Positions 41,218 through 56,017 of a stretch of DNA of 64,000 nt are shown piece after piece (position 1 is the first letter of the stretch; the number at the start of each line of letters is the position of its first letter). A model generated the notes under the pieces. That model made no database searches and had not been told where the DNA came from. It worked only from the letters and a program-made list of their open reading frames with translations. The position numbers and the translations under genes were made by a program. The DNA is from a virus, in the IMG/VR virus record IMGVR_UViG_3300034105_003891, positions 2,593 to 66,592 of that record. The stretch is one strand, 5' to 3'.

Positions 41218-41640
41218 ATGATATCAATCTATCTAGACGACACCAGAACGCCATTAGAACACCCAGCAGGGAAAGAATGGACAGTAGTAAGAGATTATGA
41301 TCAATTCGTAGATCTGGTCACTAAAACAGGTCTAAATAACGTTGAATTGATATCATTGGATCATGATCTTGGTCCCTTAGCCATCAAACATTTCTTCGAT
41401 AACACCAGAGCAAACTACACCATAAATTATGCTTTCATTAGGGAGAATACAGGTATGGATGTGGTTAAATGGCTGATTAATCTGGCAAGAGAATTGGATC
41501 TTGATTTACCCCAATGTTATGTTCATAGCGCAAATCCAATAGGCTGTGGCAATATGATGGGACACATCAACATGTACCACAAAGAAAGAAGAAAACACCA
41601 GACTTGCGTAAGGGTCAAATGGAAGCATTCTAGCAAATAA
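41218..41640 (+). CDS. Cyclic-phosphate-processing receiver-like domain protein
   Basis: YLDDTR, ISLDHDLG, TGMD, VHSANPIG. Confidence 0.8.
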   Translation: MISIYLDDTRTPLEHPAGKEWTVVRDYDQFVDLVTKTGLNNVELISLDHDLGPLAIKHFFDNTRANYTINYAFIRENTGMDVVKWLINLARELDLDLPQCYVHSANPIGCGNMMGHINMYHKERRKHQTCVRVKWKHSSK

Positions 41641-41667
41641 AAATGGTGCATCTGCGATATATAACGG

Positions 41668-43472: not shown

Positions 43473-43482
43473 CAAAAATCGG

Positions 43483-43558
43483 AAATAATTTTTTTATTCG
43501 AAACATTTTCCTAAATTTGCATAAAATATTAAAATCAATTAGATATATAAATCTATAA
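43483..43558 (+). promoter_or_regulatory. Dual promoter block (TAAATTTG 43512, GATATATA 43542), duplicated at 52311-52387
   Basis: About 76 bp differing by one substitution and one T indel. Confidence 0.9.
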
Positions 43559-43571
43559 TTTAAAAAACACA

Positions 43572-43700
43572 ATGAAAACAACTTTCAGAAATACTGTCAA
43601 TCCGTTTATGCCGCAAAGCATTGCACCCTTTAACCAGGTGGGCACTGCCAAATGGTATAATGGGAAAGATAAAGGATCTGGAGGTCACAATATAATTTAA
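43572..43700 (+). CDS. Attenuator leader peptide 1 (42 aa)
   Basis: MKTTFRNTVNPFMPQSIAPFNQVGTAKWYNGKDKGSGGHNII; not in ORF track; 3' codons complementary to the terminator arm. Confidence 0.8.
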   Translation: MKTTFRNTVNPFMPQSIAPFNQVGTAKWYNGKDKGSGGHNII

Positions 43701-43736
43701 TGTAAAGCACTAGTCAAATAAGCATTAAATATTTTT

Positions 43737-43770
43737 ACTCCAGATCTTAAAAGATCTGGAGTTTTTTTTT
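43737..43770 (+). terminator. Attenuator terminator 1
   Basis: ACTCCAGATCT-TAAA-AGATCTGGAGT plus T-run, 13 nt before tRNA-Pro. Confidence 0.9.
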
Positions 43771-43783
43771 GGACTAGAATTAA

Positions 43784-43859
43784 CGGGGAGTGGACTAATT
43801 GGCTAAGTCGCCTGATTTGGATTCAGGACATCATCAGAGTTCGAGTCTCTGTTCCCCGA
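43784..43859 (+). tRNA. tRNA-Pro(TGG)
   Basis: Cloverleaf; loop TT-TGG-AT. Confidence 0.85.
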
Positions 43860-43875
43860 CAAATAAATAAATGAA

Positions 43876-44103
43876 ATGGCAACAATAAAAGAAATCGTAA
43901 AAGACAACAAAGTTAGATTCTCGCATTTAAAGAATGACATAGCTTACTATAATGTATTCGTAGAGGGAGCGGATCACACATTCCCAGTTAGACTGAATGA
44001 TATAGGTGAAGCAACTTTGTTAGCTGAAGATAATGCCATCTTCTTTATGAGGTACATTAGAAAGGCTTTAGAAAACAACGAGTTTCATAAGGCAACTAGG
44101 TAA
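43876..44103 (+). CDS. Hypothetical protein
   Basis: 75-aa ORF between tRNAs. Confidence 0.7.
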   Translation: MATIKEIVKDNKVRFSHLKNDIAYYNVFVEGADHTFPVRLNDIGEATLLAEDNAIFFMRYIRKALENNEFHKATR

Positions 44104-44107
44104 ACAA

Positions 44108-44178
44108 ACGGGCTTGGTGCAATGGTAGCATGCCGGTCTCCAAAACCGTTGATGAAAGTTCGAATCTTTCAGTCCGTG
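44108..44178 (+). tRNA. tRNA-Trp(CCA)
   Basis: Cloverleaf; loop CT-CCA-AA. Confidence 0.88.
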
Positions 44179-44232
44179 CTGGCGCTTTTTCGTACTTTAG
44201 TTTGGATATATAAGCTAAACTAAAATATAGAA

Positions 44233-44901
44233 ATGGCAAGAAAAGAAAAACAGTTTAATTATCTTTATAAGATAACAAACACAAAAAATGATAAATATTA
44301 CATAGGAATGCATTCAACAGATAATCTGAATGATGGTTATATGGGTGGAGGTAAAAGAATTAGAAATTCGATTAGAAAGCATGGAAAAGAGATACACGAA
44401 AAGGAAATATTAGAATTTCATGAATCGAGGGAGGAATTGGCTATAAGAGAGAAAGAGATTGTGAATATTGAATTAATTAAATTCGACCCATTATGTATGA
44501 ATCTCTGTGTAGGAGGTGAAGGAGGTCCAAGAGGTGGAGGTGATAAATTTAAGAGAGCAAACGAGGTTAATAAAACGGAGGAAGGGAATAGGAAAATACG
44601 AAAATCTATATCAATATCAATGAAGAAAAAATATGAGGACCCTATATACAGAGAAAAAGCAAACCTAATATTAAAAAATACAGGTGGATTTGGTTCACGA
44701 AAACACACCGACGAATCAAAGGAAATGATAGGGAAGACAAATTCGGTTTCCCAATCTGGCGAAAGAAATTCACAATTTGGGAAACTTTGGATAAAGAACG
44801 ATTTACTTATGTTAAACAAAAGGATAAATCCAGATGAGCTTGACTATTATATCAATGAGGGATTTTCAAAGGGCATGAATATGAAATATTTTAGAAAGTA
44901 A
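44233..44901 (+). CDS. GIY-YIG homing endonuclease (Seg-like, NUMOD3-like motif)
   Basis: YLYKITN...YYIG; KHTDESK..I. Confidence 0.85.
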   Translation: MARKEKQFNYLYKITNTKNDKYYIGMHSTDNLNDGYMGGGKRIRNSIRKHGKEIHEKEILEFHESREELAIREKEIVNIELIKFDPLCMNLCVGGEGGPRGGGDKFKRANEVNKTEEGNRKIRKSISISMKKKYEDPIYREKANLILKNTGGFGSRKHTDESKEMIGKTNSVSQSGERNSQFGKLWIKNDLLMLNKRINPDELDYYINEGFSKGMNMKYFRK

Positions 44902-44910
44902 ACAATAAAT

Positions 44911-44983
44911 TGGGATATGATGCAATTGGTTAGCATACGACACTTTGACTGTCGCTATTAGTGTTCGAGTCACTATATCCCAA
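44911..44983 (+). tRNA. tRNA-Gln(TTG)
   Basis: Cloverleaf; loop CT-TTG-AC. Confidence 0.88.
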
Positions 44984-45037
44984 CAAAAGATTAAAAAATT
45001 ATAGAAAAAAATATTTTCTTAATCCGAAAGCATTTCA

Positions 45038-45082
45038 TATATTTGCGATGTTAATAAAAAGGTTCTTTGACATAACGGAAAC
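45038..45082 (+). promoter_or_regulatory. Internal promoter plus boxA-like site
   Basis: TATATTTG 45038-45045; GTTCTTTGACAT 45062-45073. Confidence 0.65.
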
Positions 45083-45155
45083 TAAATCATCACGATAAAG
45101 TGGAAACCGTTTAATAAACCAGGCAGGTTTATTAAACAAAAACAACTTTATTAAT

Positions 45156-45229
45156 GACCTCGTAGCTCAGTTGGCTAGAGCATCGCACTTTTAATGCGGG
45201 AGTCGTCGGTTCGAGCCCGACCGGGGTCA
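45156..45229 (+). tRNA. tRNA-Lys(TTT)
   Basis: Cloverleaf; loop CT-TTT-AA. Confidence 0.92.
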
Positions 45230-45234
45230 CAACG

Positions 45235-45312
45235 GGGATATTGGCACAGCGGCGACTGCACCTGACTGTAAATCAGGCATACCACACGGAGGTTCGAGTC
45301 CTCCATATCCCA
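45235..45312 (+). tRNA. tRNA-Tyr(GTA)
   Basis: Cloverleaf; loop CT-GTA-AA. Confidence 0.85.
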
Positions 45313-45317
45313 CAAAC

Positions 45318-45428
45318 GGAGTAAAAGGGCTGGGAAATGCCTGATAGGGTCTGCTTCAGATTCTAGATAGCAAGAGCAAGACTATTAGTGCTTATCCCAG
45401 AGAGCGTGGTTCAATTCCAGCTGCTCCA
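45318..45428 (+). ncRNA. tRNA-like RNA (acceptor stem, T arm, long irregular stem)
   Basis: GGAGTA/TGCTCC-A; TGG-TTCAATT-CCA; CTGGGA/TCCCAG. Confidence 0.55.
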
Positions 45429-45442
45429 CAAAATATTAATAT

Positions 45443-45515
45443 TCCAGAGTATTTCAATGGTCAGAAGACGGTACTGTTAATACCGAGGTTGCTGGTTCGA
45501 GCCCAGCCTCTGGAG
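45443..45515 (+). tRNA. tRNA-Asn(GTT)
   Basis: Cloverleaf; loop CT-GTT-AA. Confidence 0.9.
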
Positions 45516-45549
45516 CAAATAATAAAAAAATAAAAATAGTATTATTTCT

Positions 45550-46548
45550 ATGGTGAGAAATAAAAAAAGTTGCTTAAAATGCAATAAGGAGATAAGTTTA
45601 TCAAATTACACGAAACACGAAGAAACGTGCAAAGGTTCAAAAATTAAACTTAATTTGAATGACATAGTTAATGAAGCAGGTTTATGTATATGTCCGCATT
45701 GCCAAAAAGAATATAATATTAAAGGCATAGGGACGCATATATGGGCATCGCATGGGGATGGACTAAATACAAATCGAAAAAAAGGAAATGTTCCATGGAA
45801 TCACGGTCTAAATAAAAAAACTGATGAAAGAGTAGCCAGGCAAGCATTGATTTTATCAGAAGGATATAAAAACGGAAACATACACCCATCCTTCCTGGGT
45901 AAATCACACACGGAGCTAACAATCAATCAAATGAAAAAAAATCCAAAGTGTGGTGGAATAAGAAAGGGAAGCGGCAGGGGAAAAAGTGGATGGTATAGAG
46001 GCTATTATTGTGATAGCACATGGGAATTAGCATATGTTATATACAATATGGAAAATAAAATATATTTTGAAAGAAATACGAGAGGATTCCAATATATTTA
46101 CGAAAACGAAATACATTTATACTATCCAGATTTTATACAGCAAGACGGAAAATATGTTGAAATAAAGGGATACATGGATAGCAAAAACATAGAAAAAATA
46201 AAGGAATTTAGGAAAAATAATATACTTATTGTACTTGATGAAAAAGAAATTAGAAAATATTTAATTTACGCAAAAGAAAAATACGGTAAGGATCTATCCC
46301 TCCTCTATGATTCAGAGGAAATTAACAAAAAAGAAAAAACCAGGATGGAAATAATCAGAGATGAAAGAAAATCTATAATAAGGGAAAGCAATATAAATTT
46401 TAAAGAATATGGCTGGGGCAAAGAACTATCATTACTATTAAATATATCATCACAGAAATCAATAAAATGGGTAATTGATAATATGATGGATGAATTAAAC
46501 CCAAAATTATCACATATAAATAAAAAAGCGGGGGTAGCTCAGAGGTAG
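45550..46548 (+). CDS. Putative PD-(D/E)XK homing endonuclease with Zn fingers
   Basis: CxxC motifs, GKSHT, YYPDF...VEIKG; stop codon lies inside tRNA-Phe. Confidence 0.75.
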   Translation: MVRNKKSCLKCNKEISLSNYTKHEETCKGSKIKLNLNDIVNEAGLCICPHCQKEYNIKGIGTHIWASHGDGLNTNRKKGNVPWNHGLNKKTDERVARQALILSEGYKNGNIHPSFLGKSHTELTINQMKKNPKCGGIRKGSGRGKSGWYRGYYCDSTWELAYVIYNMENKIYFERNTRGFQYIYENEIHLYYPDFIQQDGKYVEIKGYMDSKNIEKIKEFRKNNILIVLDEKEIRKYLIYAKEKYGKDLSLLYDSEEINKKEKTRMEIIRDERKSIIRESNINFKEYGWGKELSLLLNISSQKSIKWVIDNMMDELNPKLSHINKKAGVAQR

Positions 46549-46602
46549 AGCACTGTGTTGAAGCTGCAGGTGTCGCGGGTTCGATTCCCGCTCTCCGCAC
46601 CA
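46528..46602 (+). tRNA. tRNA-Phe(GAA), encoded CCA
   Basis: Cloverleaf; loop TT-GAA-GC. Confidence 0.88.
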
Positions 46603-46661
46603 CAAATTAGATGAATCATGATAAGGAAACTTATTCGTAGAAATCATCTAAAATAATAAAT

Positions 46662-46733
46662 TCCTCTCTCGTATATCGGTTATTACGGATGACTGTTAAT
46701 CATCTTAGCTAGGTTCAATTCCTAGGGGAGGAG
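46662..46733 (+). tRNA. tRNA-Asn(GTT), second divergent copy
   Basis: Cloverleaf; loop CT-GTT-AA. Confidence 0.8.
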
Positions 46734-46831
46734 CAAATTAAAAGTGTGCCTGGTCAAGCCTCTTACTTCATTGTAACGTAACTAGTGGGTATAGAACTAA
46801 CATCAAACTTAGTTCGACGCTACCCAAAAAT

Positions 46832-46904
46832 GCGATAGTAGCTCAATTGGTAGAGCGCGACCTTGCCAAGGTCGAGGTTGCCGGATCGTGCCCGGTTTAT
46901 CGCT
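46832..46904 (+). tRNA. tRNA-Gly(GCC)
   Basis: Cloverleaf; atypical T loop ATCGTGC. Confidence 0.85.
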
Positions 46905-46950
46905 CACATGCCGGAAGATCCACGATTGAATCATCGTGCCGGCTCCAATA

Positions 46951-47024
46951 TAATAGGTCTTTGGTTCTAAGTCCGAGATAGTAATATCCGAAATCCGTCC
47001 AGAACGGTAAGCTGAGACCTATTA
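46951..47024 (+). ncRNA. Small structured RNA candidate
   Basis: Closed by TAATAGGTCT/AGACCTATTA; inner GTTCT/AGAAC and GATA-GTAA-TATC. Confidence 0.4.
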
Positions 47025-47030
47025 TTTAAT

Positions 47031-47108
47031 GCATGTATCGCCTAGTTGGTTATGGCATCACACTTCCAATGTGAAATAACGTCAGTTCGAATCTGACTAC
47101 ATGCTCCA
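47031..47108 (+). tRNA. tRNA-Gly(TCC), encoded CCA
   Basis: Cloverleaf; loop CT-TCC-AA. Confidence 0.9.
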
Positions 47109-47132
47109 GGTATTAAAAAGAATTATAAAAAT

Positions 47133-48047
47133 ATGTTGGGTTCGGAAAAAGTTTTAATTAGAGTCAATTCAAACCATCTAAAATATTATAGAGATCTTGG
47201 ATATTCAGCTAATAATCTAGATACGATATATGTATTACCACGTCATCTGCCACATGGAAGTCACGTAAAAATTAACATTTCATGTGACTACTGTAATATA
47301 ATAAACTATATTGAATTTAGATCGATTAGCGACAAAATAAATTTTATATATTCGTGTAGGTCCTGCTCATCCAAAGCAAGTTCATTAAAATATCCTTCTG
47401 TTTTTAGGAATTCAGAATTACAGAGGGAGCTGTCATTAAGAAATGATGCAAATTCCTTGATTAAGAGGAAAAAATCCAGATTAACCAAATACGGAGATGA
47501 AAATTACAATAATCAAAGTAAGAGAAAGTGGACATTAAAATCCAAATATGGCGATGAAAATTATAACAATACTGATAAACGAAGGGAAACATCTAAAACC
47601 ATATATGGTGATTCGAACTATAATAACCAGAGCAAGAAAATAGAAACCTGTAAAAAGAAATATGGGGTTGAGTATACTAGCCAACTAGAATCTGTGTGGA
47701 AAAAGATACAAAAATCATCGTACAAAACACACGATTATAAAAATACAGGGATACACTATCAGGGAAGCTATGAATTAGATTTCTTAGAATATTGCACTTC
47801 TAATGATATCAAGATAAGTAACGGTCCATCAATTAATTATATTTTTAAAGGAAAGAAAAGGAAATACTATCCTGATTTCATAATCGAAAATAATAATCTA
47901 GTAGTAGAAATAAAATCAACATACACGTTAAATTATGATATGGAATGCAATATAGCTAAACAAAATGCAGTTAAACTAGCCGGTTATAATTTCATTTTTG
48001 TAGTAGATAAAAATTACAAAGATCTGAAAGAAATAATTAGGGTGTAA
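47133..48047 (+). CDS. Putative PD-(D/E)XK homing endonuclease with KYGxxN repeats
   Basis: KYGDENYNN repeats; YYPDF...VEIKS. Confidence 0.75.
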   Translation: MLGSEKVLIRVNSNHLKYYRDLGYSANNLDTIYVLPRHLPHGSHVKINISCDYCNIINYIEFRSISDKINFIYSCRSCSSKASSLKYPSVFRNSELQRELSLRNDANSLIKRKKSRLTKYGDENYNNQSKRKWTLKSKYGDENYNNTDKRRETSKTIYGDSNYNNQSKKIETCKKKYGVEYTSQLESVWKKIQKSSYKTHDYKNTGIHYQGSYELDFLEYCTSNDIKISNGPSINYIFKGKKRKYYPDFIIENNNLVVEIKSTYTLNYDMECNIAKQNAVKLAGYNFIFVVDKNYKDLKEIIRV

Positions 48048-48119
48048 TAAAATAAACATATATTAGCAAAGTATGCTAATGATAATGCGAATAAATTATT
48101 TTAAAAATAAAACAAATAA

Positions 48120-48146
48120 ATGAAAACAATCATCGACTCCTCATAG
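48120..48146 (+). CDS. 8-aa upstream ORF MKTIIDSS
   Basis: TAG lies in a hairpin that pairs with the ATG of 48169. Confidence 0.45.
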   Translation: MKTIIDSS

Positions 48147-48168
48147 TTTTGGCAATTAGCTAAAAATT

Positions 48169-48402
48169 ATGACTCAGAAATTGAGAATTTGGAGAGTAGT
48201 TCCTACCAGTAAGACTGGTGTTCAGGCTCCCACTTTTTTCGTAGAGACTACGGAAGAAGGTCGTGAGAAGGCAGAGCAATCTGCAATTAAACAAGCAAGA
48301 CAAAGATCTGGCTTGGGTGTGTTTCAAAACTGGAATTTTAACCTTACCAAAATGGAGGTTAGAGTTGATCGATTTGGCAGATATGTCAAACATCATCAGT
48401 AG
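48169..48402 (+). CDS. Small basic hypothetical protein
   Basis: 77-aa ORF; start codon in predicted hairpin. Confidence 0.65.
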   Translation: MTQKLRIWRVVPTSKTGVQAPTFFVETTEEGREKAEQSAIKQARQRSGLGVFQNWNFNLTKMEVRVDRFGRYVKHHQ

Positions 48403-48442
48403 AAGTGATTGTTTTCATAGGTTCAATAAAAACCTATGATTT

Positions 48443-48516
48443 GGCGGGGTAGCTCAGATGGTTAGAGCGCGGGTTTCATACACCCGAGGCCGGTGGTTCG
48501 ATTCCACTTCCCGCTA
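48443..48516 (+). tRNA. tRNA-Met(CAT), probably elongator
   Basis: Cloverleaf; loop TT-CAT-AC. Confidence 0.85.
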
Positions 48517-48524
48517 CTAAGAAT

Positions 48525-48597
48525 GGGTCGGTAGCTCAATTGGCTGAGCACTTCACTTGCACTGAAGATGATGGGAGTTCGAGTCTCCTCCGATCCA
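48525..48597 (+). tRNA. tRNA-Ala(TGC)
   Basis: Cloverleaf; G3:U70 present. Confidence 0.92.
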
Positions 48598-48689
48598 CAA
48601 GATATTTTATTTTTAAAATGAAGTAAAATAAATTGAAAAATATTTTTTAATCACGAATGTTTGGATTACATTTGTAAAAAATTAAAACA

Positions 48690-49259
48690 ATGGCAAAGAA
48701 GGAAGAAGATTTAAAATTCTATGAGTACTCTCAGAATAACACTGGTGGGTCATTCGTAACTGATGATAAACTATGCCATAGATTATTCATAGAAGCGGAA
48801 AGCGAGTCTGAGGCAGATTCGATAGCGGAAGATCTAGGCTGTTATTGGAATGGCGTCAATGAAGGTCAAGATTGTCCATGCTGCGGTGATCGCTGGTATG
48901 GTGGTCATGAAGTTAATCTAATGAACATGACAAGAGAAAAGGATGGCACATATCCAGTAGAGGAATGGGTTGATAAAAGAAAATCAACGCCAGAGGAAGC
49001 ATTGGAATCATTAAGATCCAGATATTCAGAATTTGAATGGGTTAAAGCACCATCATTAGGTGACAAATATGGATCACCTATCATAGAAGGTGTGGTTAAA
49101 CTTAATAGCATAGAGGATTATGCACAGGTAATGGCTGATCAATTTGGTTGGACCTACCCAGATACTAGAATATTCTATCGCGACGGCAGAGTAAAAGAGA
49201 TATTTTCTTATAAGGTGGAAGCACCTAAGAAAAAAGGTAAAAAAATAGAAATAGAATAA
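48690..49259 (+). CDS. Conserved phage hypothetical protein
   Basis: QNNTGGSF...IEA...DCPCCGDRW; TACATTTG promoter 48667. Confidence 0.7.
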   Translation: MAKKEEDLKFYEYSQNNTGGSFVTDDKLCHRLFIEAESESEADSIAEDLGCYWNGVNEGQDCPCCGDRWYGGHEVNLMNMTREKDGTYPVEEWVDKRKSTPEEALESLRSRYSEFEWVKAPSLGDKYGSPIIEGVVKLNSIEDYAQVMADQFGWTYPDTRIFYRDGRVKEIFSYKVEAPKKKGKKIEIE

Positions 49260-49281
49260 ACCGGTAGCAATACCAGTAACC

Positions 49282-49356
49282 GGTTCCTTAGCTCAGTTGA
49301 TTCAGAGCGCTTCGTTTACACCGAAGAGGCCGTAGGTTTGAATCCTACAGGAATCA
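49282..49356 (+). tRNA. tRNA-Val(TAC)
   Basis: Cloverleaf; loop TT-TAC-AC. Confidence 0.88.
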
Positions 49357-49360
49357 CAAA

Positions 49361-49550
49361 AGATCCAATTAGTTCGAAAGAGCAAAAAAGGACGAATAAG
49401 ATGAACAGACGAAAGTCATCTCCAGAGGGTAGAAAATGAAAGGCTGACGCATCAGTCGACGGATTGATGAATGGTTTGATTCCGTTCCCAGAAGGTTTCA
49501 AGAGTATGGGATCAAGGTGTTAGTAGCGGTCTAAAATCTGAATTGGATCT
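49361..49550 (+). ncRNA. Structured RNA candidate, about 190 nt
   Basis: Closed by AGATCCAATT/AATTGGATCT; GNRA hairpins inside. Confidence 0.5.
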
Positions 49551-49560
49551 TGATAAAAAA

Positions 49561-49638
49561 TGTAGCTCACAAGGACACCTATTTATAGCTCAATTTCGAG
49601 CTCTTTTGAGCTTAAAGTTGGGGGCTTTGTGAGCTACA
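49561..49638 (+). ncRNA. Structured RNA candidate, 78 nt
   Basis: 14-bp closing stem TGTAGCTCACAAGG/CTTTGTGAGCTACA. Confidence 0.4.
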
Positions 49639-49641
49639 AAT

Positions 49642-49734
49642 CGATTGGATGATATAGTGGCAGTATTAGGTCGGGGGTCTTACGTGAGTGAGTTGCCTCT
49701 GGTCCAGCACAGGTTCGATTCCTGTTTCAATCGC
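49642..49734 (+). ncRNA. tRNA-like RNA with elongated anticodon arm capped by GTGA
   Basis: CGATTGGA/TTCAATCG acceptor; ACAGG-TTCGATT-CCTGT T arm. Confidence 0.6.
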
Positions 49735-49754
49735 TAATTTTTAAATATTTCAAA

Positions 49755-50144
49755 ATGGACAAGGAAAGATTGGAATCATTAGCTAATAGATTATTAGAGA
49801 TTCCTGCAAAGATTGTTGAAGCACAATTAGAGTTATTGACATTAACTGAAACTTCACAATCACAATCAGACAAGATCACACAGATCGAATCTGTAATTAG
49901 AGCTGAGATAGGTGCTACCGTTGATGGCTCTGGTAAAAAAGCTTACAGTAATGCGGAAGCAAGGGATGCTGCTTTTGTTGAAAAAACTGCAGATAATTAC
50001 GAATTGATTGTTGCTAAAACCGATCTTGCTAAAACACAAAGATCAGTACAAGAAAAAAGGATTAAGATAGAGGCTCTCGGAAGCGATCAGAGAAATATTA
50101 GATCAGTTCTATATTTTATAGGTGGCGGGGAAGGATCAATCTAA
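49755..50144 (+). CDS. Coiled-coil hypothetical protein
   Basis: 129 aa, helical; YSNAEARDA. Confidence 0.7.
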   Translation: MDKERLESLANRLLEIPAKIVEAQLELLTLTETSQSQSDKITQIESVIRAEIGATVDGSGKKAYSNAEARDAAFVEKTADNYELIVAKTDLAKTQRSVQEKRIKIEALGSDQRNIRSVLYFIGGGEGSI

Positions 50145-50226
50145 AAATTAAAAAATTTAAAATTAATTTTTTTATCCCGAAAGGTAATCATATATTTGCA
50201 TCATAATAATTAATAACAAATAAAAG

Positions 50227-50400
50227 ATGGCTACAGCAGCAAAAAGATCCAGACAATCAAGAGCATTATCAATGTTAGAAAAACAACTAGCAAGCGGGGT
50301 TAAAACAGAAAAAGGTACAAGGGACGGTAAAGTCGATTTATCTGATTCTGATGTAAAACGTCTTAACAAGGAGATCGGTATTTTACAAGGAAGACTGTAA
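50227..50400 (+). CDS. Small basic hypothetical protein (57 aa, not in track)
   Basis: MATAAKRSRQSRAL... after TATATTTG 50191. Confidence 0.6.
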   Translation: MATAAKRSRQSRALSMLEKQLASGVKTEKGTRDGKVDLSDSDVKRLNKEIGILQGRL

Positions 50401-50407
50401 TAAAGTT

Positions 50408-50479
50408 GGTCCCATAGTTCAACGGATAGAACACCTGACTACGGATCAGGAGATGGGGGTTCGAATCCCTTTGGGATCT
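50408..50479 (+). tRNA. tRNA-Arg(ACG)
   Basis: Cloverleaf; loop CT-ACG-GA. Confidence 0.9.
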
Positions 50480-50486
50480 CAAAATC

Positions 50487-50560
50487 CGGTAGGTAGCTCA
50501 GTTGGTTAGAGCGTCGCACTGATACTGCGAAGGTCGGAGGTCCAAGTCCTCCTCTACCGA
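50487..50560 (+). tRNA. tRNA-Ile(GAT)
   Basis: Cloverleaf; loop CT-GAT-AC. Confidence 0.88.
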
Positions 50561-50628
50561 CAGCAATGAAACATTAAAGGAAACATCAATATAAATATCA
50601 GAAATTATAAATAAATTTAAGGGAAATT

Positions 50629-51552
50629 ATGAAAAGAAATTCGTTAGCATCAACAGGTTTATCTATGTCTCAAGCTCAGTCAATCTCAAATCTTTGTAAC
50701 CAAAGATCTAAAGATATCACTGCAACATTGAGCGACATTAACAATGCATCAAAAACAATAAACATAGACAAGATAGACCACGATTTAGAAGTGGGCAAAC
50801 CTTTGCCGGTAAATGTTATAGAATTGCTTAAAGATAAGGCAAGATTGCATGCAACTCAAGCTTTTCTTATGGAAAATACAAAAGCCAAAGATGCTCTAAT
50901 TAATAAAATCAAAGGCGAGCATTTTGACTATGAATCTGGAAATCCAGGTCCTCTAAGGGAATCAACTATTTATCCTGAAGTTCAATCACAAGTAACTGAA
51001 GATTGGGGATGGGATCAACTTTCCACTCTAGAGTATAATGAGTTTATTGAGGCTGAGGCTTATGCTTCGCACATTGGTCAATTCATACATAGAGGTGGAA
51101 CTCTTGATCGATTGAGAAGTGAATTACCTAAGATTCAAACCTTGGAGTTCATGGAGATCGAGAAGGATAAGAAAACACCAGTTAAGATCAAAGCGCATCA
51201 CAAGTCAGAGGATCTTTTAAAAACTCACGAAGAGTTAGCAGCTCTTCACAGAGGTTACGAACAGAGAGTTAACTACTTCAAATCGAAGGTTAAGAACTCA
51301 GTAACCAAAGAGAATGCAAGGATTTCTAAAGTTAATGCGGATGCTCAGGCAGAAGCTAACGAAAAGAATGCTCTTTCATTGAACGAGTATTCTAAAAAGA
51401 AAGAGACTTGGTTGGCTGAATATAAAAGAGCAAGTCTTGATTTTGAGACAGAGCGTCAAAATCGAATTGGCGAGGCAGTAAATCTTAAAATTCAAGTGGA
51501 TGCTAGATTCCAACCAGTTGTTGACGAGTTTTTAAAACAACTAGAAAAATAA
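50629..51552 (+). CDS. Helical/coiled-coil hypothetical protein
   Basis: 307 aa; HIGQFIH segment; long helical C-terminus. Confidence 0.8.
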   Translation: MKRNSLASTGLSMSQAQSISNLCNQRSKDITATLSDINNASKTINIDKIDHDLEVGKPLPVNVIELLKDKARLHATQAFLMENTKAKDALINKIKGEHFDYESGNPGPLRESTIYPEVQSQVTEDWGWDQLSTLEYNEFIEAEAYASHIGQFIHRGGTLDRLRSELPKIQTLEFMEIEKDKKTPVKIKAHHKSEDLLKTHEELAALHRGYEQRVNYFKSKVKNSVTKENARISKVNADAQAEANEKNALSLNEYSKKKETWLAEYKRASLDFETERQNRIGEAVNLKIQVDARFQPVVDEFLKQLEK

Positions 51553-51558
51553 AAAATA

Positions 51559-51940
51559 AATTGAGGTGCTGAAGGGGTAAGCAAAAGCCGATTCCCCTGA
51601 TGCTTTGATTCGGAGAGATGAAGTCCTAAAAAACAATGGCTCCAAGCCATTATCTTATTAGATAAATGACTATTAATCATATACAGCAATTAGAGATGTA
51701 TCCTCCGGGATCTCTCAAAACTCCGCTTCTTCTATAAAATTAAACAGAACTGAGATAGAACTCAAACGTTAGACAAGTTACTGAAAGCAATAGAGAAAGA
51801 TAAATCTTTACCACTAGGCAGATAATTGGCTAACACTCGAGACTTAGTTTTTGTCCTTGCCTTTGCGATAGAGGAAGGTCTTTGACATTGATCTTGCATT
51901 TGACTTAGTCTATATGCTTTATCTTTTCGATAACTCAATT
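51559..51940 (+). ncRNA. Structured RNA candidate, about 380 nt, with 6-nt periodic TTG/TAG runs
   Basis: AATTGAG/CTCAATT ends; 51726-51735 pairs with 51868-51877; terminator 51961-51990. Confidence 0.55.
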
Positions 51941-52030
51941 TTATAATATTCACACATAACAAAAAAGTCATCACATACGATGACTTTTTTGTTGTTATAT
52001 AGATGGATATATAAAATAAAAAATATCAAT

Positions 52031-52303
52031 ATGAAACATTTAGAATCATACGAATTAAAGAATCAGAAAATCGACGAGGGATTCGGGACAGATGAAACTG
52101 CAGTAATTAAAGAGTTAAAAGCTGATCTTGAGGGACTCGTAAAACAAAATGTTGCGGTAACAGATTTTAGCACTACAAAATTTGAGCAGAGAGAAAAAAG
52201 ATTAGATGAGATATTACACGATCTAAGTTTTATCGTTGCTAGATATGCTGATATCACTGATAGTGGCGACTTTGTTGCTAAACCTTTAAATGAAATTCAA
52301 TAA
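52031..52303 (+). CDS. Hypothetical protein, MKH-type N-terminus
   Basis: Start re-assigned to MKHLESYE after GATATATA. Confidence 0.7.
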   Translation: MKHLESYELKNQKIDEGFGTDETAVIKELKADLEGLVKQNVAVTDFSTTKFEQREKRLDEILHDLSFIVARYADITDSGDFVAKPLNEIQ

Positions 52304-52310
52304 AAATCAA

Positions 52311-52387
52311 AAATAATTTTTTTTATTCGAAACATTTTCTTAAATTTGCATAAAATATTAAAATCAATTAGATATATAAATCTATAA
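52311..52387 (+). promoter_or_regulatory. Second copy of dual promoter block (TAAATTTG 52341, GATATATA 52371)
   Basis: Near-identical to 43483-43558. Confidence 0.9.
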
Positions 52388-52398
52388 AAATAAAAACG

Positions 52399-52491
52399 AT
52401 GTCACAAATACAGTACATATTAGATACATTACATTTAGATCACACAAGTTCGACTTGTGAATCGTCTATTGTAATGAGGAGAGAGTATTGA
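52399..52491 (+). CDS. Attenuator leader peptide 2 (30 aa)
   Basis: MSQIQYILDTLHLDHTSSTCESSIVMRREY; not in ORF track; last codons complementary to the terminator arm. Confidence 0.8.
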   Translation: MSQIQYILDTLHLDHTSSTCESSIVMRREY

Positions 52492-52514
52492 TATTAAGTC
52501 ACATAATAATATCT

Positions 52515-52545
52515 AAAAGGTCTCCTCGCAAAGGAGACCTTTTTT
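52515..52545 (+). terminator. Attenuator terminator 2
   Basis: AAAAGGTCTCCT-CGCAA-AGGAGACCTTTTTT. Confidence 0.9.
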
Positions 52546-52548
52546 ATT

Positions 52549-52568
52549 GTTCATTGAAATAGCGGAAA
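52549..52568 (+). promoter_or_regulatory. boxA-like site
   Basis: GTTCATTGAAATAGCGGAAA, matches 45062 GTTCTTTGACATAACGGAAA at 17/20. Confidence 0.6.
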
Positions 52569-52576
52569 AACAAATT

Positions 52577-52660
52577 GGAGGTGTGGACAGCTGGTTGTCA
52601 AACGGTCTTGAAAATCGTCGCTCGTTTTTCGGGTTGCAGGTTCGAATCCTGTCACCTCCG
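52577..52660 (+). tRNA. tRNA-Ser(TGA)
   Basis: Cloverleaf, long variable arm. Confidence 0.88.
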
Positions 52661-52666
52661 CTAATC

Positions 52667-52752
52667 GGAGATTAATACTAAACGGTGATAGTCCATGCCT
52701 GGAAAGCATCGGGTGCGGGTAACTGCATAGGGTTCGATCCCCTTGATCTCCT
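52667..52752 (+). tRNA. tRNA-Ser(GGA)
   Basis: Cloverleaf, long variable arm; atypical T discriminator. Confidence 0.75.
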
Positions 52753-52790
52753 CTGGCGCTTTTTCGCACAAAGTAAGAAAAAGTAAAACT

Positions 52791-52864
52791 GCTTCCAACG
52801 CATAAGTGGTGGTGCACGGGATTTGTAACCCCGAATAGACTCAGTTCGATCCTGAGTGGAAGCT
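52791..52864 (+). tRNA. tRNA-Thr(TGT)
   Basis: Cloverleaf; loop TT-TGT-AA. Confidence 0.82.
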
Positions 52865-52874
52865 CTATAATCAC

Positions 52875-52957
52875 GGTGCCTTGCCTGAGTGGCTGAAAGG
52901 GGCGGTCTGCAAAACCGCTAGAGAAATCTCGCGTCAGTTCGAATCTGACAGGCACCT
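52875..52957 (+). tRNA. tRNA-Cys(GCA) with long variable arm
   Basis: Loop CT-GCA-AA; U73; extra arm GAG-AAAT-CTC. Confidence 0.82.
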
Positions 52958-52976
52958 CTAATAAAAATTAGTAATC

Positions 52977-53414
52977 ATGGAACAAGACAAAAAAGAAAAA
53001 ATTGAAAAGATCAAAAGGTTCCTTGAAGAAAAAAGGGAAATAGATCGAAGAAATTATCACGAGCTTCGAAGAAAAAAATGGGATAATTTAAAGCCATTTA
53101 AAACACCGCAGGATGTACCAGAAATACCAAAAGTTAGTGAGCAGGAATATAAGGAATATTATATACCAAAACTCATCGAAGCTGGTGCAATTCCAAAAGC
53201 TGAACTCGAAGATGGAGCTTTCTATCTTGGAGATCACAGAAGATGCAAGATTGGTAAATGGAACGCCGCTGAGAATGTCTTTGGGTATTGGAGAAACAAA
53301 TTTGGTAATGGTTTCATTGACAAATGCAACCACTTCGAAGACGATGAGGGATTCGCTTTATTTACTCCAATAAAAAAAGTGACAGAAGAGGAATTTAATA
53401 AAACAAAAGAATAG
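52977..53414 (+). CDS. Hypothetical protein
   Basis: 145-aa ORF inside tRNA block 2. Confidence 0.75.
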   Translation: MEQDKKEKIEKIKRFLEEKREIDRRNYHELRRKKWDNLKPFKTPQDVPEIPKVSEQEYKEYYIPKLIEAGAIPKAELEDGAFYLGDHRRCKIGKWNAAENVFGYWRNKFGNGFIDKCNHFEDDEGFALFTPIKKVTEEEFNKTKE

Positions 53415-53469
53415 CATCTCCCTAGGGAGAAGGCACTGGCTGGCGATCTGGCCTTATAGATCGCAACAT

Positions 53470-53541
53470 GGTGATTGTGGTGTAACGGTAACACGCCTGG
53501 TTGTGGTTCAGGTAATGGCAGTTCGATTCTGCTCTTTCACA
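53470..53541 (+). tRNA. tRNA-His(GTG), degenerate acceptor stem
   Basis: Loop TT-GTG-GT; G-1 present, two T:T mismatches, A73. Confidence 0.65.
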
Positions 53542-53547
53542 CAAAAT

Positions 53548-53632
53548 GCTACTGTGGTGTAATGGAAGCCACGCCAGACTTAAAATCTGGTGTTCAGTAA
53601 TGGACGTGCCGGTTCGATCCCGGCCAGTAGTA
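53548..53632 (+). tRNA. tRNA-Leu(TAA)
   Basis: Cloverleaf, long variable arm. Confidence 0.9.
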
Positions 53633-53637
53633 CAAAA

Positions 53638-53723
53638 AGAGAAGTAAGCATAACGGTACTGCCGCGGATTGCTAATCCGTTCATCATTAATTTGGTGTGT
53701 GGGTTCGAATCCCATCTTCTCTG
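53638..53723 (+). tRNA. tRNA-Ser(GCT)
   Basis: Cloverleaf, long variable arm, G73. Confidence 0.85.
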
Positions 53724-53807
53724 CAAAGATAATTAAAAAAATATCAAAAATTATTTTTTTATCGCGAAAGAATATCATACTTTTGCAATATAATAATAAA
53801 CAAAAAA

Positions 53808-53879
53808 GGTCCTGTAGCTCAGCGGTAGAGCAAGTTCCTCATAAGAACGAGGCCGGGATATCGTAATTCCCCAGGACCA
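53808..53879 (+). tRNA. tRNA with CAT anticodon, probably Ile2 (lysidine)
   Basis: GGTCCTG acceptor, loop CT-CAT-AA; identity inferred; atypical T loop. Confidence 0.7.
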
Positions 53880-53881
53880 CT

Positions 53882-54032
53882 AGAAATAATGGGATTTCCT
53901 ACTTATTGATGTCGACAATCATGGGTAGATCAAGAAATTCATCACCCCCTGAAAAGGAATCTGCCGAGGCCTCGTAAAACTACGATTAAGCAGTTAAGAA
54001 TGGAGCGAGACGGGTACTCCATCATTATTTCT
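53882..54032 (+). ncRNA. Structured RNA candidate, about 150 nt
   Basis: Closed by AGAAATAATG/CATTATTTCT; ATGGAG/CTCCAT hairpin near 3' end. Confidence 0.45.
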
Positions 54033-54037
54033 TAACC

Positions 54038-54110
54038 GCTGCCATCGTCTAACGGTAAAGGACCTATGGTTTTCATCCATAAAATGGGAGTTCGATTCTC
54101 CCTGGCAGTA
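54038..54110 (+). tRNA. tRNA-Glu(TTC)
   Basis: Cloverleaf; loop TT-TTC-AT. Confidence 0.88.
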
Positions 54111-54119
54111 CAAATGGAT

Positions 54120-54319
54120 ATGAGATGTCCATCAGTCTTTGATCTAAGACTCATTTAACAATAGATTGGCTATTGGACCGGACAGCCTTAACGACGGTCT
54201 CGTGGGAAATAAAAGGCAGGTAACAGAGCCTCCCAGTAGTTTGACTAATTTCACCGGGTAAGACCAGCAGGTTTATTGAAAAGTAAGAAAACCGATCTAT
54301 CCACACCGAAATATCTCAT
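54120..54319 (+). ncRNA. Structured RNA candidate, about 200 nt
   Basis: ATGAGATGT/ATATCTCAT and ATAGATTGG/CCGATCTAT nested stems. Confidence 0.45.
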
Positions 54320-54331
54320 CGGTGGCAATTT

Positions 54332-54403
54332 GGTCCATTCGTTCAACGGCTAGGATGCTACCCTGTCACGGTAGAGAAGAGATTTCGATTATCTCATGGA
54401 CCG
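54332..54403 (+). tRNA. tRNA-Asp(GTC)
   Basis: Cloverleaf; loop CT-GTC-AC; G73. Confidence 0.88.
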
Positions 54404-54452
54404 CAAAGCTTTGAATTAATTACCCAAAGCATGACAGGTTCGAAACTGTCGA

Positions 54453-54543
54453 TTGATTATGGTGTAAAGGTGCACAGTAGAACGGAGTAGCCGTGGAGGC
54501 GAAAGGGGAAACAGGATTGGAGTTCAAATCTCCTTTAATCAGC
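54453..54543 (+). ncRNA. tRNA-like RNA without a canonical anticodon arm
   Basis: TTGATTA/TAATCAG acceptor, D-like arm, GGAG-TTCAAAT-CTCC T arm. Confidence 0.5.
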
Positions 54544-54544
54544 T

Positions 54545-54615
54545 TGCGTAAAAGTGTAAAGGTTGCATGGGACCCTCATAAGGTCTACGGGCCGGATCGT
54601 TCCCGGAATACGCTA
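54545..54615 (+). tRNA. Atypical tRNA with CAT anticodon
   Basis: GGACC-CTCATAA-GGTCT; mismatched acceptor ends. Confidence 0.55.
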
Positions 54616-54619
54616 CTAC

Positions 54620-54654
54620 AAGCCATGGCTTTACCGGATGCCATGGCTTTTTTG
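54620..54654 (+). terminator. Terminator ending tRNA block 2
   Basis: AAGCCATGGC...GCCATGGCTT plus T-run. Confidence 0.8.
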
Positions 54655-54712
54655 TTTCCCGCGAAAATAGTTTCTACCTCTTAGATATATAACAGAAATA
54701 AAAAAATTCGAT

Positions 54713-55042
54713 ATGAAAAATATAGAAACGTTTGAGAACTTTATCAACGAGGAATCGGAAAATGAGATATCAGAAAAAATGAATGCAGGATTTAGAGCTT
54801 ATCTAGATAAACAAAAAGCTAAAAGAGAAGCTAAATCAGGGGATAAACCAAAAAGCAAAGCAAAGCCTGATTTTCTAGATCTTGATAAGGACGGAGACAA
54901 GGACGAGACAATGAAAAAAGCAGCAGCCGATAAAAAAGAAAATGATGGCGAGCCAGCAAATACTCCAAAAAAGGGACTAACTGATAAACAAAAAACCCTA
55001 CCAAAAGCCTTACAAGCAGCTATTCTTAAAAAACAGAAATAA
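54713..55042 (+). CDS. Small charged virion-type protein
   Basis: MKNIETFENFINEE; KPDFLDLDKDGDKDETMKKAA motif. Confidence 0.7.
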   Translation: MKNIETFENFINEESENEISEKMNAGFRAYLDKQKAKREAKSGDKPKSKAKPDFLDLDKDGDKDETMKKAAADKKENDGEPANTPKKGLTDKQKTLPKALQAAILKKQK

Positions 55043-55163
55043 ATCCCACAATAGTTAAAAAAGTCCGATATCCACAATATCGGACTTTTTTGTTTCCCGT
55101 GCAAATAGCCGGATTTTTTTCGAATATATAGCTTGTCGTATTCGATTATAATCAAAGACTTAA

Positions 55164-55970: not shown

Positions 55971-56017
55971 ATCATCAAGATTGAATATATACAGAGAAGC
56001 AAAAAAATCAAACCAAA

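Follow-up and report, generated by a model that had tools for sequence, protein, structure and literature searches.

Leader-peptide attenuators control amino-acid biosynthesis in the trp, his, leu and thr operons, and multivalent attenuation has been described for ilvGMEDA and ilvBN, whose leaders combine codons of two or three related amino acids, each of them able to relieve termination. The pheST attenuator (leader pheM) controls a synthetase through Phe codons only, and T-box leaders bind uncharged tRNA directly and do not need translation. The known control of tRNA genes is exerted at the promoter (growth rate, stringent response). To our knowledge, all described leader-peptide attenuators regulate amino-acid biosynthesis or a synthetase operon, and a literature search returned no described precedent for an attenuator of tRNA genes.

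The portion of PMC3082878 that sets out the pheL/pheA leader-peptide attenuator model defines regions 1–4, which form helices 1:2, 2:3 and 3:4, with stalling freeing region 2. Phage tRNA arrays are thought to replace depleted or cleaved host tRNAs, countering tRNA-targeting defence (PMC10264068, PMC11555353); the opening lines of their abstracts concern tRNA function and name no upstream leader peptide or attenuator.

The window analysed here, a 64,000-nt stretch of the IMG/VR record IMGVR_UViG_3300034105_003891, contains two units that resemble the amino-acid operon attenuators in placing a short, presumably translated leader between promoter and first gene, and in having an intrinsic terminator and regions 2–4, to which leader 1 adds region 1. 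In contrast to those attenuators, they are phage-borne and the genes that follow are tRNAs rather than biosynthetic enzymes or synthetases. Instead of a run of one amino acid, the leaders hold one to a few codons for each of approximately 12 or approximately 7; region 1 of leader 1 lies at codons 4–6, upstream of the stall zone (the codons between region 1 and region 2) and not inside it, and region 2 lies within the ORF, ahead of the stop codon. The presence of several amino acids in one leader is shared with ilvGMEDA and ilvBN, although those of the phage leaders are unrelated and appear to be set by the tRNA content of the operon. As in pheST, leader-peptide attenuation would act on a component of the translation apparatus with feedback through charged tRNA, except that the product here is the very tRNA read in the leader, whereas that of pheST is the synthetase. 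T-box leaders likewise sense tRNA status through a terminator/antiterminator switch ahead of translation-related genes, but the phage leader ORFs are under coding constraint, whereas a T-box needs no translation. On the combined sequence evidence, each unit is very probably a ribosome-mediated (trp/his-type) transcription attenuator gating a phage tRNA operon. This interpretation was put forward in a first-pass annotation of the window, and every test proposed there that could be run computationally came out in its favour.

Organization of the leader–tRNA units

The two units comprise the following features.

43489..43568, plus strand: promoter and shared 5'UTR, copy 1 (80-nt repeat, 94% identical to 52318-52397)
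43512-43519, plus strand: TAAATTTG box of promoter copy 1
43572..43700, plus strand: leader ORF 1 (42 aa; stop codon 43698-43700)
43784..50561, plus strand: tRNA block 1, 15 tRNA genes (Pro Trp Gln Lys Tyr Asn Phe Asn Gly Gly Met Ala Val Arg Ile)
52318..52397, plus strand: promoter and shared 5'UTR, copy 2 (direct repeat of 43489-43568)
52399..52491, plus strand: leader ORF 2 (30 aa)
52577..54404, plus strand: tRNA block 2, 10 tRNA genes (Ser Ser Thr Cys His Leu Ser Met Glu Asp)

The carrier of both units is a lake-water giant phage. A tRNA gene search bore out the block 1 list of the first-pass annotation; of the two CAT tRNAs that it had placed in block 2, ARAGORN and Rfam give one, at 53808. 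ORFs are interspersed among the tRNAs of block 1. The common promoter claimed at the head of both blocks was recovered as the 80-nt repeat, which includes a 45-nt core (43512-43556 and 52341-52385) that is identical in the two copies, against a chance expectation of 0 matches. The promoter pattern CGAAA..TAnnTTTG occurs eight times in the window versus 0.47 expected.

A short ORF had also been claimed before each tRNA block, and ORFs of 42 and 30 aa were found there. The order in each unit is promoter, short ORF, intrinsic terminator and first tRNA (Pro at 43784 in block 1 and Ser at 52577 in block 2), with the first tRNA starting 8–30 nt past the T run, a space too short for a further promoter. 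Because promoter, ORF and terminator precede the first tRNA at this distance, the tRNAs are expected to be made only by read-through. An internal contrast is provided by the upstream tRNA-Arg(TCT), which shows the ordinary order of ORF, terminator, own promoter and tRNA.

Conservation and coding constraint of the leader ORFs

Orthologous leaders were sought in viral and metagenome collections, and the unit was present in every related locus having sufficient sequence, yielding 23 distinct leader-1 and nine distinct leader-2 peptides. In the RNA runs, contigs of relatives were all that appeared. The leader-1 ORF, terminator and tRNA were recognized by script in 23 of 24 representative loci and by eye in the remaining one (L074). 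Coding constraint on the leader ORFs is evident: no variant has lost the start, the stop or the frame, lengths change by whole codons only (40, 42 or 45 in leader 1; 28–33 in leader 2), the variable columns at codon positions 1, 2 and 3 number 13, 13 and 20 of 30, and the invariant Pro, Gly and Ala residues are each encoded by the full set of their synonymous codons. The start contexts are A-rich and contain no Shine–Dalgarno sequence, in both respects like those of the other genes of the phage, and the ORFs are presumably translated. In leader 1, 18 of the 42 columns are invariant in the peptide; such strong conservation could also reflect a function of the peptide. Neither leader peptide matches a Pfam family.

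Conserved alternative RNA structures

The predicted RNA elements are as follows.

43582..43589, plus strand: region 1 of attenuator 1 (CTTTCAGA, codons 4–6), pairing with 43677-43684 in the full-length MFE
43674..43684, plus strand: region 2 of attenuator 1 (GGATCTGGAGG, codons 35–38), the site that pairs best with the terminator 5' arm (−17.0 kcal/mol)
43689..43733, plus strand: inner stem of antiterminator 1, enclosing stop codon 43698-43700 (MFE of segment 43673-43747)
43737..43771, plus strand: intrinsic terminator 1 (regions 3 and 4 plus T run; hairpin 43737-43762)
52476..52482, plus strand: region 2 of attenuator 2 (GAGGAGA, codons 26–29), pairing with TCTCCTC at 52521-52527
52515..52549, plus strand: intrinsic terminator 2 (hairpin 52515-52543 with T run)

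Leader 1 carries the full attenuator anatomy. Its last codons contain GGATCTGGAG (43674-43683), which is complementary to CTCCAGATCT (43738-47), and region 2 has two alternative partners, namely region 1 and region 3. The elements named in the first-pass annotation were recovered in both units: complementary segments that would form an antiterminator in the last codons, an inner stem that by MFE lies over or adjoins the stop codon, and a hairpin with T run ahead of the first tRNA. Folding of both leaders, as had been proposed, confirmed that the alternative structures are present and conserved.

Covariation is strong for leader-1 helix 1:2 (21 sequences), in which 87.5% of cells are paired versus 23–63% in slid controls, 3 of 8 pairs show changes in both partners, and none of 500 shuffles attains the covariation score. 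It is likewise strong for helix 3:4 (19 sequences; 99.5% paired, three pairs changed on both sides). For leader-1 helix 2:3 it is modest, with 81.3% paired versus 24–54% in slid controls, a percentage reached by 13 of 500 shuffles, and one double-change pair; in group B this helix is weak (−6.8 to −10 kcal/mol). Region 2 of leader 2 varies among relatives in step with the terminator stem, and helix 2:3 of the C/D-type leader 2 is 98.6% paired, versus 28–61% in slid controls.

Across units, 2:3 complementarity was found in all 36, and the best target of the terminator 5' arm lies 1–18 nt before the stop codon in 34 of them; at loci L016 and L079 the best duplex site is elsewhere than the expected region 2. 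Duplexes between the tails of the two leaders and their own terminator arms average −12.9 and −11.1 kcal/mol, versus −6.9 and −5.5 kcal/mol with the arms of the other leader. Upstream pairing of region 2 appears in the full-length MFE of 34/36 units, and in leader 2 of the window the candidate upstream helix (52427-33/52470-76) only touches region 2.

Covariation of this kind reveals an RNA structure but not its operator, and the helices might be worked by some different agent (for example an RNA-binding protein of the phage or the host, uncharged tRNA as in a T-box, or a small molecule) instead of by the ribosome, with the ORFs being incidental. This is very unlikely in view of the start, stop and frame kept in the 23 and nine variants, the restriction of indels to whole codons, the synonymous variation at invariant residues, and the tie between leader composition and tRNA sets. 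Furthermore, a cmscan of 40000-56000 gave only tRNA hits and weak hits at chance level, with no match of the leaders to T-box RF00230 or other Rfam cis-regulatory families at E up to 0.1, and none to the Rfam leader families of amino-acid operons (His, Leu, Thr, Trp and Phe leaders).

The ORFs could instead be ordinary small-protein genes with their own terminators, in which case the tRNAs would arise from leaky read-through or other promoters and the composition of the leaders would reflect peptide function. The 18 invariant residues of leader 1 and the Ser/Thr/Cys-rich cores of leader 2, which recall some modified-peptide precursors, would fit such an explanation, and the absence of a Pfam match leaves room for a novel peptide. 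We nevertheless consider it highly improbable, as a promoter cannot fit between the terminator and the first tRNA, the 1:2 covariation sits inside coding sequence, and the ORF-internal region 2 copies the terminator 3' arm and tracks its changes, once in another reading frame. In addition, leader 2 peptides have little sequence in common beyond their amino-acid set.

Correspondence between leader codons and tRNA content

The codons of each stall zone correspond almost entirely to the tRNAs of its own block. Over 12 loci, 263 of 285 stall-zone codons in leader 1 and 180 of 189 in leader 2 are for amino acids of own-block tRNAs, and the positions belonging to the other block alone number 13 and 6, respectively. 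The first-pass annotation had reported that leader 1 is without L, C and E and leader 2 without P, W, K, N, F, G and A, which proved correct, and the leader/array codon match exceeded expectation by permutation. A Fisher test of leader 1 versus leader 2 gave p = 3e-4 for the window and p = 3e-7 for group B, and both composition thresholds were reached by a fraction of 1.3e-4 of 200,000 random proteome segments. Codons 8–23 of leader 2 form a run of 16 block-2 residues that no other of the record's 445 short ORFs equals, the next-best run being 11; the longest in long ORFs is 7.

The match is not strict. Asn codons are retained at loci L066 and L068, where tRNA-Asn was not seen in block 1, Ile codons are present at L016, where tRNA-Ile was not seen, and Met(CAT) is absent from block 1 in several loci. 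No codon in the stall zone corresponds to the block 1 tRNA for Arg, and strict wobble leaves GCC/GCT, CCC/CCT, ACT and GTC/GTT without an assigned tRNA, as well as GGC/GGT where Gly(GCC) is absent. Residues outside the expected sets are explained by constraints of RNA structure on their positions; at codon 6, for example, an AGA/GGA change covaries with UCUGGA/UCCGGA in region 2.

Alternatively, a genuine RNA switch with a translated leader might respond to how fast translation proceeds as a whole (through ribosome availability, host shut-off or ribosome–polymerase coupling) rather than to single tRNAs, the codon make-up being due to descent and RNA-structure constraints. In favour of this, the sequence of leader 1 hardly differs between lineages, and it stays unchanged where Asn, Ile and Met tRNAs have come or gone in block 1; a leader whose codons cover more than 10 amino acids would also respond to any general slowdown. 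A sensor of this type would, however, need neither disjoint amino-acid sets nor the tracking of Leu codons. The near-disjoint sets of the two leaders mirror their own blocks, and leader 2 diverges freely yet stays within the block-2 set, its Leu codons coming and going with the Leu tRNAs, so that sensing of overall pace appears unlikely.

A further check proposed in the first-pass annotation was whether leader codons co-vary with tRNA content in relatives; they do, and Leu gives the clearest case. All nine loci with Leu tRNA(s) in block 2 have at least three Leu codons in the leader-2 stall zone, and all five loci without one have 0. Moreover, lineages with only Leu(TAA) use TTA only, and those with both Leu(TAA) and Leu(TAG) use TTA and CTN. 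The independent evolutionary events behind the codon–tRNA match are few: leader 2 and block 2, being neighbours, may be inherited together, and given the noise and mosaicism of the tRNA trees, perhaps no more than two events underlie the Leu covariation.

Proposed mechanism of tRNA operon control

In the proposed attenuation mechanism, a host-type promoter would fire and the transcript would begin with the short translated ORF. Region 2, in the last codons, would have two possible partners: region 1 upstream (codons 4–6 in the case of leader 1) and region 3 downstream, which supplies the 5' arm of the intrinsic terminator. An unhindered ribosome reaching the stop codon would mask region 2 and the inner stem, allowing the 3:4 terminator to form and leaving the tRNA genes silent. 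A ribosome stalled between regions 1 and 2, presumably coupled to RNA polymerase, would leave region 2 free to pair with the newly made region 3, and this 2:3 pairing would block the terminator, with the polymerase continuing into the tRNA genes. We infer that stalling causes read-through, the proposed direction of the response, and that starvation or an anticodon nuclease is the natural trigger.

As the stall zone consists almost wholly of own-operon codons, shortage of any such tRNA would induce its own supply, and the newly made tRNAs would switch the operon off again, constituting a negative feedback loop, or tRNA homeostat. A leader that lists the codons of its own tRNAs would close this loop directly, since what is read in it is also what is regulated. 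It is somewhat more probable than its opposite that each leader acts as a codon-by-codon poll of its own operon, in which depletion of any of approximately 12 (block 1) or approximately 7 (block 2) tRNA species, whether through starvation, host shut-off or anticodon-nuclease defence, lifts termination and induces precisely the operon carrying its replacement, as a self-regulating supply.

If this is true, tRNA genes would for the first time be seen under leader-peptide attenuation, and no known multivalent attenuator would be broader; if the leaders list the codons of the tRNAs that they control, attenuation would be able to integrate a dozen inputs. The reason for the presence of tRNA arrays in large phages, and the timing of their use, would become open to test, as the leaders predict which tRNA shortage induces which array. 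They may also provide a sensor, compact and portable, for the availability of individual tRNAs.

Promoter-like sites within the tRNA blocks

The first-pass annotation had cautioned that internal promoters at 45038, 48667, 50191 and 53778 may provide basal expression of distal tRNAs. Three of these positions fall inside promoter-like sites, at 45025-45045 and 50178-50198 in block 1 and at 53765-53785 in block 2; the copy around the fourth, at 48635-48675, is just 63% like the promoter-family reference. The distal tRNAs can be fed independently by these putative internal promoters in the lineage of the window. The caveat does not extend to the relatives, in which the strict promoter pattern places promoters solely before the two leaders.

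Layout of the tRNA blocks and their leaders

The window, which covers 64 kb of a viral record 66.6 kb long and has a G+C content of 36.6 %, carries 27 tRNA genes as identified by ARAGORN, every one of them on the + strand. The features considered here are as follows.

40734 and 41126, + strand: two tRNA genes before the blocks (ARAGORN)
43489–43568 and 52318–52397: copies 1 and 2 of a shared 80-nt head sequence, 94 % identical overall and without any difference over a 45-nt core
43572–43700: leader ORF 1, 42 aa
43582–43589: region 1 of leader 1, codons 4–6
43674–43684: region 2 of leader 1, codons 35–38, a near copy of the terminator 3′ arm
43737–43771 and 52515–52549: terminator hairpins with T runs
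43784 to 50561, + strand: block 1, 15 tRNAs (ARAGORN)
52399–52491: leader ORF 2, 30 aa
52577 to 54404, + strand: block 2, 10 tRNAs (ARAGORN)

The observation from which this analysis started, that two leader units of the same build precede the tRNA blocks, was confirmed in the sequence. The second CAT tRNA assigned to block 2 by the first-pass annotation was found by neither ARAGORN nor Rfam. A weak extra tRNA-like match at 49643–49733 (33 bits, Rfam) corresponds to no ARAGORN call, and the stretches between block-2 tRNAs at 53880–54030, 54110–54330 and 54410–54660, which are richer in G+C and lack ORFs, may be tRNA remnants or structured RNAs of another kind.

The shared 80-nt sequence includes a TAnnTTTG box, which we take to be the −7 element of Bacteroidota promoters. 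The gap between terminator and first tRNA (8 nt in block 1, 30 nt in block 2) is too short to accommodate a promoter, and the proximal tRNAs can therefore be made solely by terminator read-through. The tRNA-Arg(TCT) gene at 40734 provides an internal contrast, as it follows the ordinary order of ORF, terminator, own promoter (TATATTTG at 40708–40715) and tRNA. A third attenuator before this gene, formed by ORF 40431–40610 and its terminator, was rejected because of the separate promoter between terminator and tRNA. The 59-aa product of this ORF is lipoprotein-like, with a signal peptide ending in LSSC followed by VDTT-type repeats; the ORF has its own terminator (40631–40659) and is kept in the related loci L002, L050 and L051.

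Related loci and sample

Related loci were gathered with a protein search, with DNA patterns and with a scan using a peptide profile, from viral contigs of 117–434 kb, some of which have terminal repeats and are rated complete, and from 25 metagenome contigs. A DNA search of a phage collection with 43176–45600 revealed no relative, its matches being limited to similarity with tRNAs and homing endonucleases. Across the relatives, 23 distinct leader-1 peptides (40, 42 or 45 aa) and nine distinct leader-2 peptides (28–33 aa) were obtained. The order leader 1, terminator and tRNA was recovered by script in 23 of 24 representative loci; in the remaining one, L074, a 9-nt terminator loop lies outside the limits of the script and the unit was confirmed by eye. 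Wherever a locus extends as far as block 2 (15 loci), leader 2 is present.

The public DNA runs containing the window's sequence are lake-water metagenomes, while RNA or possible-RNA runs hold less than 10 % of its words, and their contigs consist of relatives at 90–95 % likeness and tRNA-like pieces of other organisms, with nothing else. In one metatranscriptome contig of a relative (run X24, record 21), position 44179 is linked to 43871; this permuted or tandem arrangement of 309 nt spans a 75-aa ORF and tRNA-Trp and may be an assembly artefact.

Coding constraint on the leader ORFs

Start and stop codons are present in all leaders, and length differences amount to whole codons. Among 19 leader-1 sequences, the varying columns at codon positions 1, 2 and 3 number 13, 13 and 20 of 30 (codons 2–31), the invariant Pro, Gly, Ala, Gln and Lys are each encoded by several synonymous codons, and leader 2 of the group A lineage shows synonymous changes only. 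By these measures, selection acts on the coding content of both leader ORFs. The start context is A-rich and lacks a Shine–Dalgarno sequence, as in 18 other genes of the phage (A fraction of 0.55 and 0.65 for the leaders, a mean of 0.54 for the 18 genes and 0.35 genome-wide). The reading of the ORFs as ordinary small-protein genes has a low probability. Neither the leaders nor the adjoining small ORFs matched a Pfam family.

Anticodon-TTA tRNAs (read as TAA suppressors) or TCA-type tRNAs lie inside block 1 of some relatives (L047 at 5794, in minus-strand orientation; L051 at 15008 and 16259; L054 at 15435; L071 at 4082 and 6593; L072 at 12091) and may reflect stop-codon recoding in part of the phage group. 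Read-through of a leader TAA or TGA stop by suppressor tRNAs would alter the behaviour of the attenuator.

Alternative RNA structures

Leader 1 is built like a classical attenuator, with none of the four regions missing. Region 2 pairs with the terminator 5′ arm at −17 kcal/mol, and the full-length fold places region 2 with region 1 and leaves the terminator formed. The comparison across relatives is summarized below.

Table. Helices of leader 1 in aligned relatives
Helix 1:2 (anti-antiterminator); 21 sequences; 87.5 % of cells paired; slid controls 23–63 %; both-side changes in 3 of 8 pairs (26 cells); covariation score reached by 0 of 500 shuffles
Helix 2:3 (antiterminator); 19 sequences; 81.3 % paired; slid controls 24–54 %; one both-side change (CG 7, UA 4, UG 4); paired percentage reached by 13 of 500 shuffles
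Helix 3:4 (terminator); 19 sequences; 99.5 % paired; slid controls at most 51 %; both-side changes in 3 of 11 pairs; 0 of 500 shuffles

On these alignments, helices 1:2 and 3:4 are well supported as real, and helix 2:3 is supported mainly through conserved complementarity; in group B it is weak and broken by an internal loop. The change between R6 and G6 (AGA/GGA) covaries with UCUGGA/UCCGGA and is the coding face of the 1:2 covariation.

In leader 2, region 2 tracks the terminator stem through very different sequences: GAGGAGA or AGGAGA with GGUCUCCU in groups A and B, where the reading frames differ, CUAAGGGA with GG(U/C)CCCUUAG in groups C and D, and ACCGAGGGAU with GUCUCUUGGU in L074. The 13-sequence alignment (A3) yields no single 2:3 consensus, the A/B and C/D registers being one column apart; the pairing count was accordingly made on eight C/D-type rows (A5), in which 98.6 % of cells are paired versus 28–61 % when slid, with one double change, while the five A/B rows were left out because of their different register and compared by duplex energies. 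For leader 2 in general, region 1 is a candidate only, and in the window the upstream helix does no more than abut region 2.

Folding of both leaders, as had been proposed, revealed conserved alternative structures. In 34 of 36 distinct units the terminator 5′ arm finds its best site 1–18 nt before the stop codon, in all 36 the stretch spanning regions 2 and 3 forms the outer 2:3 helix, and region 2 is paired upstream in 34 full-length folds. Leader tails pair with their own arms at means of −12.9 and −11.1 kcal/mol and with the arms of the other leader at −6.9 and −5.5 kcal/mol. Folding energies lie between −8.7 and −20.8 kcal/mol for the antiterminators and between −13.9 and −23.0 kcal/mol for the terminators; in most lineages the antiterminator would therefore have to win by forming first. 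As a control of duplex strength, codon shuffling is often weak for leader 2 (6–15 % of shuffles reach the value in A/B types), and reliance was therefore placed on position and covariation rather than on energy. A switch operated by something other than the ribosome is improbable; an Rfam search with E up to 0.1 detected no T-box, leader or other cis-regulatory family at the leaders.

Codon content of the leaders

After Met1, the window's leader 1 contains block-1 and block-2 amino acids at 32:8 and leader 2 at 10:18 (Fisher p = 3e-4 for leader 1 versus leader 2), and the corresponding group B values are 36:4 and 10:22 (p = 3e-7). Both window composition thresholds were reached in 1.3e-4 of draws of random segments from the phage's long ORFs, and the 16-residue run of block-2 amino acids in leader 2 is unique among 445 short ORFs. 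Out-of-set residues sit at both ends of the leaders, the parts in which the RNA has to form region 1, region 2 and the inner stem.

The stall zone, scored from codon 7 to four codons before region 2, was compared at 12 loci with the tRNAs found in each locus's own blocks. In leader 1, 263 of 285 zone codons correspond to the own block and 13 to the other block only, and in leader 2 the numbers are 180 of 189 and six; since the rows are related, these totals indicate consistency and are not independent trials. Together with the Fisher tests they favour the proposal that each leader reads the codons of its own array. Nearly all amino acids with a block tRNA occur in the zone, the exceptions being Arg, Met, His (found at codon 6 in C/D types, outside the zone) and the extra Gly (whose tRNA lies in block 2 of L066–68). 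L083 is an example of the compact relatives: its uninterrupted block 1 encodes the tRNAs for Phe, Lys, Pro, Ala, Trp, Gln, Ile, Asn, Gly, Val and Tyr and its leader-1 zone holds exactly these 11 amino acids and Met. There are also mismatches: L066 and L068 retain Asn codons but showed no block-1 tRNA-Asn, no tRNA-Ile was seen in L016, Met(CAT) was not seen in block 1 at several loci, the block-1 Arg tRNA has no matching codon in the zone, and under strict wobble several four-box codons are matched by no tRNA of the set. A sensor of the global pace of translation, as another reading of the leaders, has little probability.

Covariation with tRNA content

Orthologous leaders were found in relatives, and their codons follow tRNA content as anticipated, most clearly for Leu. 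The sequence of leader 2 diverges freely while its amino acids remain within the block-2 set. All nine loci with Leu tRNA(s) in block 2 (the window, L001, L002, L016, L079, L073, L072, L071 and L074) have at least three Leu codons in the leader-2 zone, and all five loci without one (L047, L083 and L066–68) have none; the Leu tRNAs of L047 (as seen in L048/L054) and of L066 belong to the small upstream block. Group A, with Leu(TAA) only, uses TTA only, and lineages with Leu(TAA) and Leu(TAG) use TTA and CTN.

Leader 2 is identical in L083 and L066–68, which differ in leader 1 and block-1 tRNAs, an indication that leader 2 and block 2 have been exchanged among phage lineages as one entire module. 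Concatenated tRNA trees are noisy and the blocks disagree; given this and the adjacency of leader 2 and block 2, the independent Leu events may be few, as low as two.

Mechanism and comparison with known attenuators

Ribosome-mediated attenuation of tRNA operons is the most likely mechanism on the comparative sequence data, and the earlier attenuator interpretation thereby gains independent comparative support. The phage leaders share the anatomy of trp/his/pheA-type attenuators. Unlike these, they are carried by a phage and precede tRNA genes; their regulatory codons cover many amino acids, each represented once or a few times, the stall zone begins only after region 1, and region 2 is contained in the ORF. 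The tRNA-Phe genes of E. coli might have an attenuator-like leader; this precedent was not borne out at pheV of K-12, where the promoter directly precedes the tRNA, with no ORF or terminator. The pheL model of leader-peptide attenuation is described in PMC3082878. Full-text literature searches, on material outside most subscription journals, old scans and supplements, turned up no paper in which tRNA genes are preceded by an attenuator or leader peptide, and a printed precedent is possible. The phage leaders are probably a variant, apparently undescribed, of a known attenuation mechanism.

Promoters, upstream signals and mobile genes in the arrays

The caveat that internal promoters may sustain expression of distal tRNAs holds for the window and its close relatives L001 and L002, in which extra in-block promoters fit the strict pattern CGAAA..TAnnTTTG, and does not extend to the other lineages, where this pattern, which other promoter types may escape, occurs solely before the two leaders. 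On this count, a layout of one leader and one operon is the commoner among the lineages examined.

Nuclease-type ORFs are located inside the window's array, between tRNAs, at 44233–44901, 45550–46548 and 47133–48047. One array ORF has a SegE-like GIY-YIG domain right at the Pfam cut-off, a second a weak endonuclease I match, and a third DUF7487 and a weak TnsA-like match. As the compact arrays of relatives are devoid of such ORFs, mobile endonuclease genes seem to have enlarged the array of the window.

The sequence GATATATAA occurs 15 times in the window versus 1.8 expected (40399, 41656, 43542–43550, 44205, 52371–52379, 54684 and nine more positions). It lies 4–30 nt upstream of a gene start in all six copies checked (40399, 41656, 43542, 44205, 52371 and 54684), those at 43542 and 52371 being situated in the leader 5′ UTRs, and most relatives retain its core AGATATATA in their leader UTRs. 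The sequence may constitute a second, phage-specific promoter, with a resemblance to the T4 late promoter, TATAAATA, or else a UTR signal.
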